DNA of 64,000 nucleotides. Source: a virus. Taxonomy: Duplodnaviria > Caudoviricetes. Of this stretch, positions 23,241 to 63,742 are shown piece after piece. Made by a program: the position numbers and the translations under genes. Location of the stretch: positions 19,534-83,533 of the IMG/VR virus record IMGVR_UViG_3300029288_000139; one strand, given 5' to 3'. The notes below the pieces were generated by a model. It was given only the letters and a program-made list of their open reading frames with translations. It did no database searches and was not told where the DNA came from. The number at the start of each line of letters is the position of its first letter. The stretch's first letter is position 1.

Positions 23241-24989
23241 TTACGTTTCCTTTGTAAAAAACTTTTTTGCTACTTCTTTTGCTGCATTTTGTATCTTTTC
23301 TTTCATCCCAGAAAAATTCAAGTTTATCTTTAAAGGACTTACTACTTCACTAATTGATTTCACTCCGGGTATTGCATTAGGAACTTCGTCTCTCTGGCTT
23401 TCTTTTTCCTTTTCAGAGATTGATTGAGCTTTACCAACAATTGGAGACATAGTTGATTGAGCCTTCATTTCTTCCGGTGTTGGAGATGATAAACTAACAC
23501 CTCCTCCTGAAATTCCTACATCTTCCTCTTCTTCTTTATTTTGAGAAGAGGGTTCTACTTCAGACTCTGGGACAGAAGGAGACGGCATCCCCTCAGAAGG
23601 AATCCCAGAAGGAGGCTCATTCTCATCATCTTTCTTGGCCTTATTAATATCATCTTCAGTTAAATTCGTAAAGCGTCCTGTGATTCTAGATGATTGAATT
23701 AATTCTTTTGTTGCTATTTCTTTACTTACTAATCCTCCTGAATAAGCAGCATTAATTGTTGTCATATCGGAGGTTGCTATTTCAGCCATCTCTTTATCGC
23801 TCATCTGCCATAATGAATTGAACTTATACTCAAAATCAGGAGGCAATCTCTTTCCTAACTCCGAAACTGAAAGAACTTCTAACAATTTTGTCATGGAAGG
23901 ACGTAATTTATTTTCTTGCTCACGATAAACATTGTCGTAGTAATTTCTTAAATCAGTTTCCCCAGTATTGAATCCTGCAGGAGATTGTCCAAATAATCTA
24001 ACCAATGGTATTCCTGTAGCTCCAGAAACTTGCTGTCCTAATTCTTGTAGTAAATCAGCAGCCCCACTAATCGCTGAATTCGCATGAGGTACAAAATCGT
24101 CTAGCCCATCAAGCATTGTTATTCCTTCGTTTGTTTGCATCTGTCTAATATAATCCCATTGCTTAATGATGGCGTTCTCTTCTCTCCCACCTAACGCCAA
24201 TGCTTCTCTTAATCCGTTAATCTTAACAACTCTTAAGTATGCTCTGTACATTAACTGACTAGCTCCAAGAGTCGCTGAATCATAAGCAATCAGTCTGTCA
24301 TATATTCTCTCTACAATAGAAAGTCCCCAATGATTTTCCATCAACCTTTGATAATAAGGAAGGGTAATTCCATCAAATCTTAATACACGACTATAATGAA
24401 TTTTAATGTTAGGAAGTTTTGAACCACCGACGGATGTGTGAACTCGATAGAATTTTGGTTTCCCAAAATCTTTATTAAGGTCGGTTATTAAATTGGATAG
24501 GTCTGGTTCACACATCCATCGATCTAACACCAATAACCCTCTAAAAGTTTTTTGTCCTATCTTGTCGTAATCAATTGGCTTACTATAATCTGCTCCGTCA
24601 ATAAGCATAATGGCAATAGCACCGCCATATAATCTTGCCCATCTTATTGTATTACCTAATGATTCCCAAACATCAAAATCAGACATAGCAACATACAACT
24701 TTTTAACTTCATCAGGGGACAATTTTGATAAAATGTCAATACCCATCTTTGTCATATCTTCAGCAATAACATCAACAGCCTGTCCAATTAACCATGAGCT
24801 TCTATATCCTGCCTCTAGAGTAACTCTTTGTCTACTCATTAAATTATTTAATGAGTAAGTGGCTTGAGACATTGGATTATCAGTTCCATATCCAACTCTG
24901 TGCATGAAATTGGAGAAGGAGTCTTCTGTAAATTTCCCTCCAACTTTCTTATCCATTGTAGAAGTTCTTGTAAAATTTACTTTTGCCAT
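23241..24989 (-). CDS. Portal protein (HI1409 / DUF1073 family)
   Basis: YRSSWLIGQAVDVIAEDMT, WARLYGGA, IHYSRVLRF and ATGIPLVRLFGQSPAGFN motifs. Confidence 0.92.
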   Translation of the reverse strand: MAKVNFTRTSTMDKKVGGKFTEDSFSNFMHRVGYGTDNPMSQATYSLNNLMSRQRVTLEAGYRSSWLIGQAVDVIAEDMTKMGIDILSKLSPDEVKKLYVAMSDFDVWESLGNTIRWARLYGGAIAIMLIDGADYSKPIDYDKIGQKTFRGLLVLDRWMCEPDLSNLITDLNKDFGKPKFYRVHTSVGGSKLPNIKIHYSRVLRFDGITLPYYQRLMENHWGLSIVERIYDRLIAYDSATLGASQLMYRAYLRVVKINGLREALALGGREENAIIKQWDYIRQMQTNEGITMLDGLDDFVPHANSAISGAADLLQELGQQVSGATGIPLVRLFGQSPAGFNTGETDLRNYYDNVYREQENKLRPSMTKLLEVLSVSELGKRLPPDFEYKFNSLWQMSDKEMAEIATSDMTTINAAYSGGLVSKEIATKELIQSSRITGRFTNLTEDDINKAKKDDENEPPSGIPSEGMPSPSVPESEVEPSSQNKEEEEDVGISGGGVSLSSPTPEEMKAQSTMSPIVGKAQSISEKEKESQRDEVPNAIPGVKSISEVVSPLKINLNFSGMKEKIQNAAKEVAKKFFTKET

Positions 24990-58646: not shown

Positions 58647-58853
58647 ATGGCGAGAACTACGATAAAAATATATAGTTGGTCACGTCTTTTTCTTCCTAGA
58701 AAATTTAAAAAGAAGCCATTGGAAAAAGATGAAATAGAAATTAGAATTATTCATAAAATGAGAAGTTTAGGAATGAAATTAATCTCCTATGATACTGTTC
58801 CTTCTAAAAGAAGTGGAGAAGACTCAATAATGGTTTTTGAATCAAAGGAATAG
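58647..58853 (+). CDS. Hypothetical protein
   Basis: ORF in operon. Confidence 0.45.
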   Translation: MARTTIKIYSWSRLFLPRKFKKKPLEKDEIEIRIIHKMRSLGMKLISYDTVPSKRSGEDSIMVFESKE

Positions 58854-58857
58854 AAAT

Positions 58858-59481
58858 ATGATAAACCAAATATTATCTCGGTATAATGAATTATCAGGTC
58901 GTATAAAGTTTTTACAAAAAGATTTAGATAATAAAAAATCTCAATTTGATTCAAAGTTAGATTTAATTGATAACTTGAATAAAGCTCAGTGGACAATAAC
59001 AGAAGTACAAAAAATTACTCAAGAAAAGTTTAAGAACAAAATAGACTCTCTTGTTACAATGGCAATTAAATCTGTTTATAATAGACCATTTGGATTTGAA
59101 CTTATATTCGAACGGAAAAGAGATAAAATGGAATGTCGTCCCATCATATACGAAATTGTAAATAGAGTGAAAGAATATTATGATGATGCAGAAGATGAAC
59201 TGGGGGGAGGTATTGTTGATATTTGTTCTTTTGCGTTGAGGGTAGTTTTATGGACAATGGAAAAACCAAGAAGTAGGAATATATTTATTTTGGATGAGCC
59301 CGGAAAAAATCTCGGACAATTAATCCCTTTATTTGGACAAATGCTAAGAGAGGTTTCTCATAGTCTCAATTTTCAGTTGTTAATTATAACTCACGATGAT
59401 GCTCTAATTGAGCAAGCCGACAAGGCATGGGAAGTTATACATGATGGGAGAGAATCCCATGTAACTCAAATTCAAAAATAA
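58858..59481 (+). CDS. sbcC: SbcC / Rad50 ATPase, C-terminal half
   Basis: LGGG signature, ILDEP Walker B and ITHD H-loop. Confidence 0.85.
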   Translation: MINQILSRYNELSGRIKFLQKDLDNKKSQFDSKLDLIDNLNKAQWTITEVQKITQEKFKNKIDSLVTMAIKSVYNRPFGFELIFERKRDKMECRPIIYEIVNRVKEYYDDAEDELGGGIVDICSFALRVVLWTMEKPRSRNIFILDEPGKNLGQLIPLFGQMLREVSHSLNFQLLIITHDDALIEQADKAWEVIHDGRESHVTQIQK

Positions 59482-59496
59482 AAAGGAGATAAATTA

Positions 59497-60096
59497 ATGG
59501 CAAAAGGGGGAGATTTTGAATGGGAAGTAGCAAAGAAATTATCTCTTTGGCTAACGGATAACAAGAGGGATGATTTAATATGTCGTACAGATTCTTCTGG
59601 GGGGAGAGCGACTAAAAGAATTAAAAAGGAAAAAGAGACAAACAAATATTTATATGGAGATTTGAAATATTCTGACGACCTAGCAAAACCATTATTTGAT
59701 AAATGGTCTATTGAATGTAAGACGGGATATGCATCAAAATCAAAATTAAAAAATGGGACAAAGAAAATTGTTAATTGGGATGTTCTCGATCTATTAGATT
59801 CAAAACAGAAAACTCCTCCTTTTCTGCAAATGTGGGTACAATGTACGATTGATTCATGCTTATCAAAACGAGAGCCAATTTTAATATTTCGTAGAGATCA
59901 AAAATTAATATGTGTAGCAATTACTATAGATTACTATTTGGAATTATGCAAATATTTTAATTATCCCAAAATATCGAAAGTAGAAGTATTTATTCCAAAT
60001 ATAATGTCTCCCTACGATAAAATAACCGTTGTGAGGATAGAAGATTTTCTTCTATGGATTAATGCTAAATCAATTCTTGATTTGGAGATTAAATGA
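59497..60096 (+). CDS. Holliday junction resolvase (PD-(D/E)xK)
   Basis: KGGDFE.EVAK, GDL, IECK and PILIFRRD motifs. Confidence 0.8.
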   Translation: MAKGGDFEWEVAKKLSLWLTDNKRDDLICRTDSSGGRATKRIKKEKETNKYLYGDLKYSDDLAKPLFDKWSIECKTGYASKSKLKNGTKKIVNWDVLDLLDSKQKTPPFLQMWVQCTIDSCLSKREPILIFRRDQKLICVAITIDYYLELCKYFNYPKISKVEVFIPNIMSPYDKITVVRIEDFLLWINAKSILDLEIK

Positions 60097-61137: not shown

Positions 61138-61288
61138 CGTGTTTATTACATTTACAAGAGAAGAAGTCGCAAGGCTTCTTGACCATGAAGCTCGTAAGCA
61201 AGGCAAGCTGAAAGACGTAAAAAGTACCATAGAATATAAGATTGATGAACCGGAAGAAGTAACCGTGGAATATTGGTGGGAAGGATGA
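61121..61288 (+). CDS. Hypothetical protein (55 aa)
   Basis: GAGG RBS; overlapping start and stop with neighbours. Manual translation. Confidence 0.55.
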   Translation: MKKEHSVFITFTREEVARLLDHEARKQGKLKDVKSTIEYKIDEPEEVTVEYWWEG

Positions 61289-61401
61289 AAAAGCATTATT
61301 TGTGGTGTCCAGTGTGTAAAAAACGCGTCCGCGTTAAAAAGTTATCTTGCCCACGTAAATGCCCTCTCTGCAAGACAGAGATACAAGCGGAGTGGCAATG
61401 A
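61285..61401 (+). CDS. Small zinc-ribbon protein (38 aa)
   Basis: CPVC...CPRKCPLC; ATGA overlap. Confidence 0.55.
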   Translation: MKKHYLWCPVCKKRVRVKKLSCPRKCPLCKTEIQAEWQ

Positions 61402-61413
61402 TATTTTTTTATT

Positions 61414-61464
61414 TAAAAACGAAAAAATCAGCGGCAGCAGTCCGCTGGATGGAGCTGGTTATGC
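61414..61464 (+). mobile_element. attC-like recombination site 1
   Basis: ..AAAC gaaaa aATCAGCGG..CCGCTGGAT ggagctg GTTATGC. Confidence 0.7.
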
Positions 61465-61487
61465 CAGCCGAAAGGAAGGTTTTAAAG

Positions 61488-61688
61488 ATGAAAAACAGAA
61501 TAGATGTATTAATTGATAGGACGCGAGATGCTATCCTCACAGGAGATGGCAGCCCTGATTGCCAACATATTATTAATAAAGAAATATTAATAGTTCTGGA
61601 AGAAATTAATAAAATTTTAAAACCTGTGAGCGTGATTTGCGTTAAGGGGAGTTATTGGCATAACGCAGTAATAAGGCGCGGCCACTGA
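61488..61688 (+). CDS. Cassette 1 ORF, hypothetical
   Basis: RBS directly after attC1; reads into attC2. Confidence 0.55.
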   Translation: MKNRIDVLIDRTRDAILTGDGSPDCQHIINKEILIVLEEINKILKPVSVICVKGSYWHNAVIRRGH

Positions 61689-61741
61689 CTGCGCCCAGAG
61701 CGACGGACGAGCGACCGCCGCCTTGATTAACTTTGTTATCT
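61658..61741 (+). mobile_element. attC-like recombination site 2
   Basis: GCATAAC gcagt AATAAGGCG...CGCCTTGATT aacttt GTTATCT. Confidence 0.8.
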
Positions 61742-61759
61742 GATTTTTGAAAGGAATTT

Positions 61760-61948
61760 ATGATAATTTTTGAATTTGACAAATCGAAATGGCATAAATT
61801 TGGAAAATGGGAAAGTAGACCAGATGGGTATTTCTTTTTTAGATTTTGGATTGGTTTTATTGCTATTACATATACCAGTTTTGATCTGGCTAGTTATTCT
61901 AAATCTATAGAGGATGGCAAAACCAAATTTTATGTTATTAACAGATAA
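61760..61948 (+). CDS. Cassette 2 ORF, hypothetical
   Basis: Stop TAA lies within the TAAC of attC3. Confidence 0.65.
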   Translation: MIIFEFDKSKWHKFGKWESRPDGYFFFRFWIGFIAITYTSFDLASYSKSIEDGKTKFYVINR

Positions 61949-61990
61949 CGCAGAAATCAGCCGCTTGTCGGCTGGATTGATTGGTTATAA
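61943..61990 (+). mobile_element. attC-like recombination site 3
   Basis: AGATAAC gcaga AATCAGCCG cttgt CGGCTGGATT gattg GTTATAA. Confidence 0.8.
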
Positions 61991-62016
61991 GATTTATTAA
62001 AAATGGAGGCATCAAA

Positions 62017-62232
62017 ATGAACAATAGCGAAATTGCACAAGACAGCATTGATAGAGCCAAGGAGTTTGGCCGTAAAAAGGACGGACAAATATCTTTAGCT
62101 GTTGATTCTATTATAGCAGACTTCACGGACAGACGAGGATTGCGGCAGGAATGGGAAAATATCGATGAAGATGTAAAAAATGACATTATCGAAGTATGGG
62201 AATGTATTATGCGTAATATTTTTCACTTATAA
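62017..62232 (+). CDS. Cassette 3 ORF, hypothetical
   Basis: GGAGG RBS; stop TAA lies within the TAAC of attC4. Confidence 0.65.
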   Translation: MNNSEIAQDSIDRAKEFGRKKDGQISLAVDSIIADFTDRRGLRQEWENIDEDVKNDIIEVWECIMRNIFHL

Positions 62233-62289
62233 CACTTAATATGCCAACTTGGTATTTTGTTGCGACAGATGGAACTTTGATGGTTATGA
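62227..62289 (+). mobile_element. attC-like site 4 (degenerate)
   Basis: TTATAAC ... CAAC/GTTG ... GTTATGA, with imperfect inner arms. Confidence 0.55.
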
Positions 62290-62310
62290 TTTTTTGAGGG
62301 AGGAAAGGAA

Positions 62311-63010: not shown

Positions 63011-63316
63011 ATGAAAGAGATTAAAGAACTGTTGGGCGATTTTGAAAGAGACAATATCAGATTAATGCAGGGGAGCTTTGACATGGATTCCGTGGAAAAA
63101 TCCCGGCAAGCTATCCTGCAAGCCTTTGCAGAGAAGGACAAGCGGATTGCAGAACTGGAGAGGCGTCTCAAAATTGCCTGCCATGTTAAAGCTGACGATA
63201 AGGTAAAATTCGATTGGGCGGTGCTGGACAAGATTGACGAGCTGGAGGAAAATCTGAAAGCGGCAGAAGCGGTAATCAATTATTATAAGAATCTGATGGA
63301 GGCAAGCCATGACTGA
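63011..63316 (+). CDS. Coiled-coil hypothetical protein
   Basis: GGGG RBS; KDKRIAELE motif. Confidence 0.55.
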   Translation: MKEIKELLGDFERDNIRLMQGSFDMDSVEKSRQAILQAFAEKDKRIAELERRLKIACHVKADDKVKFDWAVLDKIDELEENLKAAEAVINYYKNLMEASHD

Positions 63317-63373
63317 TAAATTAAAAAAAACTCTGATAAATTTAAGAAAAACACTCACAATGGAGGTCAAGAA

Positions 63374-63742
63374 ATGACTAAATCAGACGCACAGAGATTC
63401 CACGAACTGACAGGCGGGTGCTGGCATGAAAGAGATTGGAGCAAAGAACCTGTAATGTGGGTAGGAGGAAAAGGCACACATTGTCTTACTTGTGTTAAAT
63501 GCAAACAACCTATTCCTATGGATTATGTTTCTAATCGTCCGACCTACGACAACGCCGCAAATATCTTAACACGAATGAAAGAGTTTTGCGGAGAGGGGCT
63601 TGAAGATTTTATTGTAGAAGTAGGCGGACTATCTAAACATGGCAGTCATTTAGATACAATCCTCGTTGATTATGTATTGCATCCCGACGACCTGTTACAG
63701 AAGGCGATTGAATGGCTGGAGGCTGAAGATGAAAAAGCGTAA
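63374..63742 (+). CDS. Hypothetical phage protein with CWHE and CVKC
   Basis: GGAGG RBS. Confidence 0.55.
   Translation: MTKSDAQRFHELTGGCWHERDWSKEPVMWVGGKGTHCLTCVKCKQPIPMDYVSNRPTYDNAANILTRMKEFCGEGLEDFIVEVGGLSKHGSHLDTILVDYVLHPDDLLQKAIEWLEAEDEKA

Follow-up and report, generated by a model that had tools for sequence, protein, structure and literature searches.

Introduction

An attC site of an integron is defined by an R box with the triplet AAC/GTT, an unpaired central spacer and an L box with an extrahelical G, further by a second extrahelical base past a 6-bp stem, a variable terminal structure and cleavage of the bottom strand between A and C (PMC5027507, Nivina et al., 2016). Clusters of attC sites without an integrase (CALINs) are also known from phages: 17 were found in 10,705 genomes and called infrequent, a methyltransferase cargo was noted, and IntI1 recombined five of the six phage attC sites tested (PMC9892861, Qi et al., 2023). 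Cassettes could also reach places outside integrons by IntI-mediated insertion at genomic 5'-GTT-3' sites (bioRxiv 10.1101/2022.09.11.507474). Here, we analyze an array of attC-type hairpins and small genes at positions 61,414 to 62,289 of a 64,000-nucleotide stretch of viral DNA (the window), which corresponds to bases 19534-83533 of the linear, 83,533 bp IMG/VR virus record IMGVR_UViG_3300029288_000139 (about 80% complete). We propose that this array is a CALIN with three single-gene cassettes; to this reading as a whole, including an integron integrase that would act in trans and a role as accessory gene store, we assign a probability of about 0.78.

The array resembles the CALIN of Tetrasphaera phage TJE1 (PMC9892861) as an attC array with small cassettes, no integrase and recurrent DNA methyltransferases, and the TJE1 site has the same type of R box (GCATAAC/GTTATAC). 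Whereas the published phage CALINs are infrequent, the array of the window belongs to a sequence-conserved family with members in about 100 contigs. With canonical attC sites (aadA1 of R100; sedentary integrons of Gammaproteobacteria) it shares R box, spacer, L box with its G, second bulge and loop, and with canonical integron cassettes the complementarity between the boxes of each cassette and the frequent placement of stop codons within the R box. In contrast to canonical integrons, the record has no intI, attI or cassette promoter Pc, the genes lie on the equivalent of the bottom strand with the site ahead of the open reading frame (ORF), two sites are shorter than 57 bp, and the third R-box position is A (GCATAAC).

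Results

Three attC-type Hairpins in the Window

Within 580 bp and on the same strand, the window contains three model-supported sites (S1, S2 and S3), each with a Shine-Dalgarno sequence and a short ORF behind it (Table 1). Their general form is xTAAC, a spacer of 4-5 nt, AAT with a 6-bp stem, a loop, the 6-bp return stem, a bulged G, ATT, a spacer of 5 nt and GTTAx. The + strand of all three sites thus shows the defining features of attC, an imperfect hairpin with an AAC/GTT R box, a spacer, an L box and bulges, and the two extrahelical bases (a G beside the L box and a second base after the 6-bp stem) recur in the window and across the family. On folding, S2 and S3 form both the inner (L-box) and the outer (R-box) helices, with a DNA fold z of -2.5 for S3. 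The central spacers measure 4-5 nt each (5' arm, GCAG(A); 3' arm, GA(C/T)TG) against an attC norm of about 5-6 nt. The R-box consensus of the family, GCATAAC/GTTATGC, matches RYYYAAC/GTTRRRY at six of seven positions, the third being A:T instead of Y:R. S2 (80-86 nt) falls inside the published attC range of 57-141 bp, and many members of the family span only 44-55 nt.

With its high AT content, the genome has about 23 plain ATAAC...GTTAT pairs per strand, so the boxes by themselves are not significant and it is the structure that carries significance. A covariance model, R1, was made from 18 sites of phage origin with no bacterial sequence among them. R1 finds S1, which lies outside its training set, with 24.3 bits (E ~1e-4 in 83.6 kb), and S2 and S3, both part of the training set, with 54.4 and 58.8 bits, respectively. 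An exhaustive R1 scan of both strands of the whole 83.5 kb genome returns S1, S2 and S3 only.

The sequence-only reading had counted four sites. Every motif that it quoted is found in place, its remark on the small size of the first and third site holds (S1 and S3 span 45-50 nt), and S1 to S3 are upheld as hairpins and by R1. The fourth, S4, drops out as a full site: it has the outer boxes only and no inner hairpin, scores 2-5 bits with R1 and has a fold z of -0.05. S4 can be read as a site that has decayed or as the right-hand edge of the array; an array in canonical orientation would have attI at this place. At the other side, the degenerate left box of S1 marks one array end. This end (AAAAA/C, the slash denoting the exchange point) is a bare AAC/GTT triplet in backbone sequence, and may be likened to the targets of IntI-mediated insertion at genomic GTT sites (bioRxiv 10.1101/2022.09.11.507474). 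The left spacer of S1, GAAAAAAT, is unusual and is common to the sites upstream of ORF1 homologues in contigs L264 and L148. A terminator-like call falls on the minus strand at the S1 stem (61429-61447), which has a T-run directly behind it; such an element could keep antisense transcripts from running into the array.

Table 1. Sites, putative cassettes and genes of the array (window coordinates; RBS, ribosome-binding site; the slash denotes the exchange point)
Feature	Coordinates	Strand	Description
S1	61413..61465	+	attC-type hairpin with degenerate left box AAAAAC; leftmost, terminal site of the array; AAC 61418-61420; stem 61429-61434/61442-61447; bulged T 61441 and bulged G 61448; GTTAT 61458-61462
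S2	61657..61742	+	attC-type hairpin of 80 nt (ATAAC to GTTAT) whose terminal structure is long and variable; bulged G 61725 and, 6 bp further in, bulged C 61718
S3	61942..61991	+	attC-type hairpin of minimal size (ATAAC to GTTAT, 44 nt); stem AAT/ATT plus CAGCCG/CGGCTG; bulged G 61975; position of the T bulge within the loop
S4	62226..62290	+	outer boxes only (CTTATAAC ... GGTTATG, then T-run), no L-box hairpin
Cassette 1 (putative)	61420..61663	+	244 bp; S1 hairpin, RBS and ORF1, between AA/C crossover points
ORF1	61488..61688	+	66 aa; reads through GCATAAC, 24 nt into S2
Cassette 2 (putative)	61664..61948	+	285 bp; S2 hairpin plus ORF2
ORF2	61760..61948	+	62 aa, orphan; stop is the TAA of AGATAAC
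Cassette 3 (putative)	61949..62232	+	284 bp; S3 hairpin plus ORF3
ORF3	62017..62232	+	71 aa; stop is the TAA of CTTATAAC

The Box Pairs Match by Cassette and Not by Site

A signature of cassettes is found in the boxes. The first bases of each cassette are the reverse complement of the bases at its own end, with GTTATGC (61458) facing GCATAAC (61658), GTTATCT (61735) facing AGATAAC (61943) and GTTATAAG (61984) facing CTTATAAC (62226). This complementarity between start and own end extends over 9, 8 and 8 nt for the three cassettes, the 8 nt of the second being the pair GTTATCTG/CAGATAAC. Within a single site, mismatching starts immediately beyond ATAAC, and ORF2 and ORF3 stop in the TAA of xTAAC, both as noted in the sequence-only reading.

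The same holds across the family. Compared by cassette, the boxes show a mean contiguous match beyond AAC of 3.96 of 6 positions (n=27), compared to 1.98 of 6 within one site (n=48) and 1.85 of 6 for random pairs across loci (n=2172), and the cassette-wise complementarity is significant by permutation (p<5e-5). Non-consensus cores obey it as well (GTTCGGCG/CGCCGAAC, GTTAGACAT/ATGTCTAAC and GTTGGGC/GCCCAAC). In a circular cassette the first bases (GTTATnnn) would pair with the last ones (nnnATAAC), so that box extensions would match by cassette and not by site: the start and the distal box would have formed a single R box in the circle, one arm each, and hence match each other instead of the site in which they now lie. 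Homologous recombination between repeats would not yield such cassette-wise complementarity.

Genes and Sites Share the Strand

The bulged bases lie on the 3' arm of the + strand in the window; in R100, the 3' arm that carries them belongs to the strand opposite the aadA1 gene. Similarly, on bona fide attC sites (R100, TJE1 and genomes that encode IntI), R1 matches the strand antisense to the flanking ORFs, whereas the R1 strand is the coding strand in the window and its family. A gene with a Shine-Dalgarno sequence and a start about 21 nt past the site fits on the strand of the site in 45 intervals and on the opposite strand in four, and in 19 of those 45 the stop codon is the TAA of the next box. 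(A test based on the longest open frame gave 39 versus 31 and is uninformative in GC-rich contigs; the fit of Shine-Dalgarno sequence, start and stop was used instead.) Unlike in the standard layout, where a top-strand ORF with a downstream attC can be expressed from Pc, the ORF lies on the matched strand with the site ahead of it.

Homologous cassettes in differing contexts show which site travels with which gene. Of 18 informative pairs, 13 have the upstream site moving along with the ORF and two the downstream site; in several pairs, ORF and upstream hairpin are 100% identical and the downstream hairpin is different. In L262 and L264, an identical gene with its upstream hairpin follows unrelated sequence, with the breakpoint exactly after xTAAC, and in L001 a unit bounded by successive ATAAC boxes is present in duplicate.

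The three independent lines, i.e., bulges, R1 strand and shared cassettes, agree that the coding (+) strand is the equivalent of the canonical recombinogenic bottom strand. Crossover would consequently take place at xTAA/C of the left box, as the homology breakpoints suggest, and each cassette would consist of a site followed by its ORF. This replaces the earlier delimitation as an ORF with its downstream site, exchanged at G/TT and excised as circles of 277, 249 and 299 bp, by cassettes of 244, 285 and 284 bp. The accompanying observation that the unpaired G sits on an unusual arm is borne out at all three sites and proves to be the feature of greatest interest: the genes consistently run opposite to the polarity seen in bacterial integrons and in the published array of TJE1.

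A Conserved Family of Sites, Mainly in Phages

A pattern derived from S2 and S3 and run on IMG/VR as a seed search hit 22 contigs, in which 17 sites are plainly the same element with covarying stems. In most of these seed contigs, R1 recovers extra sites on the same strand, 200-1200 bp apart, that had not been selected by the pattern, as it does S1. A metagenome scan added 99 further contigs, and R1 called 190 sites in 80 of these. Taken together, about 100 contigs of viral and metagenomic origin hold arrays of the family with the sites on one strand, among them dense ones such as that of L153 with nine sites in 3 kb. The source habitats are sludge, digesters, sediments and groundwater. The phage nature of the related viral fragments follows the IMG/VR classification; a TerL search found a terminase in one of 10 records.

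The family consensus is roughly GCATAAC GCAG AAAT-stem...stem-G-ATT GACNG GTTATGC and is conserved across contigs of 30-60% GC. In the alignment, which was itself fitted to R1, 89.5% of the cells are paired, compared to 77% in shuffles and 27-47% with a slid partner, and compensatory double changes occur in 10 of the 15 model pairs. R-box pairs are 95.5% paired over 45 distinct family sites. A pattern scan of genome contigs returned mostly a FabG-type coding motif (ATAACGCAGGAAT...) and says little on bacterial distribution; among the matches listed, only L126 and L136 are true family members.

Some members deviate. A site in an Eubacteriales metagenome-assembled genome (MAG; L059:6159-6207) is perfectly symmetrical (GATAACGCAGAAATCC...GGATTTCTGCGTTATC), has no bulges and scores equally on both strands. 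The metagenome contig L181 (4368-5817) carries family sites on both strands (three minus, one plus), while all other arrays seen are single-stranded. L136 (1-2024), a 2 kb contig with four family sites, is binned into a Nanoarchaeota MAG and may be wrongly binned viral DNA.

The family is related to integron sites proper. R1 matches the attC of aadA1 in R100 with 23.9 bits (E 8e-5; strand antisense to aadA1) and the published attC of phage TJE1 with 22 bits (E 3e-4). In a bacterial sample of 151 genomes from one class it matches 10 genomes with scores of 36-57 bits, a tally that includes G159 (flagged unpublished), which was used for this count only. Three of the five matched genomes checked have a true IntI above the curated cut-off, the sites beside IntI scoring 36-46 bits, and in G131 the R1 match lies 1.1 kb from intI.

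Cassettes Recur in Other Arrays

Sequence comparison indicates that the cassettes are mobile between arrays, because homologues of ORF1 and ORF3 occur as cassettes elsewhere, in agreement with the shuffling that had been proposed. An ORF1-family protein, P0020, has identical copies in the two arrays of L262 and L264, with the homology beginning just after the upstream xTAAC. ORF1 relatives with 84% identity are cassettes in two different arrays and share the GAAAAAAT spacer of S1; most ORF1 homologues have 52 aa and span the first 68% of ORF1. For ORF3, the homologue P0003 (79% amino acid identity) forms a cassette in L253 whose boxes equal those of cassette 3 both at the start (GTTATAAG) and at the end (CTTATAAC), and a further relative (89%) is present in L252 with no sites around it.

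A distant, 51-aa homologue of ORF3 in L255 (3700-5751) lies directly upstream of a true IntI and points towards intI. It is on the bottom strand too, which agrees with the inverted polarity. The IntI of L255 (TIGR02249, 389 bits) has 452 aa with an N-terminal extension of about 140 aa; past the ORF3 homologue, L255 has long palindromes with outer boxes TAAT/ATTA in place of TAAC/GTTA.

Gene Content of the Arrays

Searches of ORF1, ORF2 and ORF3 against Pfam, PHROGs and a protein atlas yielded no family and no function. The closest protein clusters of ORF3 are dominated by phages, and a search for ORF2 relatives returned only ORF2 itself. The family cargo includes orphan DNA methyltransferases and many tiny proteins of no known family. 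The most common proteins in or beside the arrays are N6_N4 DNA methyltransferases of about 250 aa (20 loci, including L019, L004, L020 and L232), and C5 cytosine methyltransferases are found at nine loci. The array is probably a shuffleable store of accessory genes for the phage, presumably counter-defence genes.

Discussion

Based on site structure, kinship to attC, cassette-wise box complementarity and shared cassettes, we propose that the window contains integron-type attC sites bounding single-gene cassettes in a phage, which was the core of the sequence-only reading. Three neighbouring sites lie in a record free of recombinases, and two or more neighbouring attC sites with no integrase nearby define a CALIN. 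In the proposed mechanism, the + strand would fold as a single-strand hairpin with an R box, an unpaired spacer, an L box with bulged G, a second bulge and a variable loop. Strand exchange would occur at xTAA/C of the left box, with 'site, RBS, ORF' as the exchanged cassette, and would be catalyzed by an IntI-type integrase in trans, most simply from the host. A host IntI acting in trans is the simplest reading, and experiments on other phage attC sites provide a precedent for it (PMC9892861).

Several points weigh against this proposal. Consistent with the earlier remark that no integrase is in view, a search of the 83.5 kb record (TIGR02249, PF00589) found neither an integron integrase nor any other tyrosine recombinase, so that a complete integron is not present. 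IntI was also not found in 15 related viral records, 125 loci (725 kb) and three MAGs with family sites. Most family contigs are short fragments, and the absence of IntI in cis therefore weighs little. Further, the R box is RYRYAAC rather than RYYYAAC, and S1 and S3 (45-50 nt) fall short of the published 57-141 bp. The polarity is opposite to the canonical one, and in a classical integron such cassettes would face Pc. Finally, the pair counts come from an alignment fitted to R1, and two of the three sites of the window (S2 and S3) belong to the training set of this model.

The recombinase could also be an enzyme other than IntI, either host XerC/XerD acting on folded single-strand sites, as for the CTX phage, or an unrecognised phage enzyme, in a phage-adapted system apart from integrons. 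We consider this unlikely. No IntI was found in about 140 family-bearing records, the family is more conserved in sequence than the attC sites of mobile integrons across 30-60% GC, which suggests one cognate protein, and the polarity is systematically inverted. The motif CATAA of the R box is also present at the inner ends of dif arms. In addition, no tyrosine recombinases besides integron integrases and XerC/XerD are known to act on single-stranded substrates (PMC5027507). However, the two bulged bases and their 6-bp spacing, both conserved in the family, are recognition features specific to IntI (PMC5027507), R1 also matches bona fide attC sites next to IntI, an ORF3 homologue adjoins a true IntI in L255, and other phage attC sites were recombined by IntI1 (PMC9892861); with fragmentary contigs, a missing IntI in cis counts for little here as well. 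Clustering of ORFs of at least 100 aa from more than 100 loci in search of a shared recombinase gave N6_N4 and C5 methylases, an SNF2 helicase and proteins without known function, but no recombinase.

Candidate enzymes beside family sites were rejected as integron integrases. The tyrosine recombinases of L016 and L009 are one generic Xer-like enzyme and one generic phage integrase, both below the IntI cut-off, and the Xer-like recombinases of the Nanoarchaeota MAG (L136) do not have the IntI-specific middle region. In L009 (2863-4077), a weak family site is followed, at a distance of 20 nt, by the gene of the generic phage-type tyrosine recombinase (378 aa), which thus looks as though it were cassette-borne.

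Phage T4-type promoter-stem-loop repeats carry promoters and have been proposed to act by homologous recombination. Similar to the sites of the window, they are conserved intergenic hairpins that flank small accessory genes in a hypervariable phage region. By analogy, the hairpins could be mainly RNA or regulatory elements (terminators, processing sites or insulators) in modules shuffled by homologous recombination between repeats. They lie on the sense strand and are hence transcribed, a T-run often follows GTTATnn(n), the next start codon follows at a narrow, regular distance of about 21 nt, and covariation alone cannot tell folding of DNA from folding of RNA. We nevertheless regard this explanation as very unlikely, given that recombination between repeats predicts no reverse complementarity between the start and the own end of a cassette, least of all with non-consensus cores. 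There is also no terminator-like call on the + strand at S1-S4 and no Rfam match, while the conserved asymmetric bulges and unpaired spacers fit the geometry of attC and the homology breakpoints fall at the AAC triplet. Unlike the T4-type repeats, the sites of the window combine the geometry of attC with a fixed triplet as crossover point and with boxes as expected for circular cassettes.

The CALIN is embedded in a variable region, an early or accessory part, of a genuine phage backbone. The record has structural genes on one arm and replication genes on the other, and its portal protein (23241-24989) has 51% identity to portals of Acinetobacter phages. Small + strand genes surround the array, which follows an SMC-like ATPase and a PDDEXK nuclease (58837-60096); an ORF of 42 aa with two CxxC pairs (61273-61401), which resembles a zinc-ribbon mini-protein, leaves 12 nt between its end and S1. 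Compared as DNA with GenBank phages, the array region gave no match, and the related viral contigs L147 and L148 encode the nuclease with 74 and 67% identity, respectively. Window positions 59488-60090 correspond to L148 124-726 on the left, and 63095-63721 to L148 1556-2835 on the right. Between these anchors the gene content of the window and of L147/L148 is not alike, and each of the two contigs has one family site in the same region. The array therefore sits in a real phage backbone, since both flanks are shared with related phage contigs while the content between them differs. That a fragment of a bacterial integron was misjoined onto the contig end during assembly, as the distance of only 1.7-2.6 kb to this end, the raised GC content of the final 2 kb (0.415) and the tendency of short repeats such as attC to cause mis-joins might suggest, is hardly credible in view of these flanks and sites, the phage-like GC content of the cargo ORFs (0.28-0.38, as low as the backbone, with the sites as GC-rich islands of 0.46-0.58) and the record of window proteins on four contigs.

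CALINs in virulent phages are already known since 2023 (PMC9892861), and the headline claim of the sequence-only reading is thus not new. Our literature search found no description of an attC family that is conserved and carried mainly by phages, of the very compact build of its cassettes (site, RBS, ORF, stop in the next box) or of the consistent inversion of its coding polarity. As a doubtful but possible extension, phages may maintain their own pool of polarity-inverted cassettes, functionally apart from the bacterial ones: these would be silent behind Pc and expressed only in phage arrays, driven by a hijacked host IntI or by a non-IntI recombinase (host Xer or a phage protein), and stocked with anti-defence genes such as orphan methyltransferases.

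In summary, a single window proves to be a member of a coherent attC family, with direct comparative evidence of cassette movement. The inverted polarity bears on the creation of cassettes and on the choice of strand versus expression. Should these sites be used by a host integrase, then phages and integrons would have a recombination currency in common but separate cargo pools; otherwise, attC-like hairpins would be recognised by an enzyme that is not yet known. The recurrent methyltransferase cargo suggests that the arrays diversify phage counter-defence, and the hundreds of tiny cassette proteins without known function are candidates for anti-defence screens.

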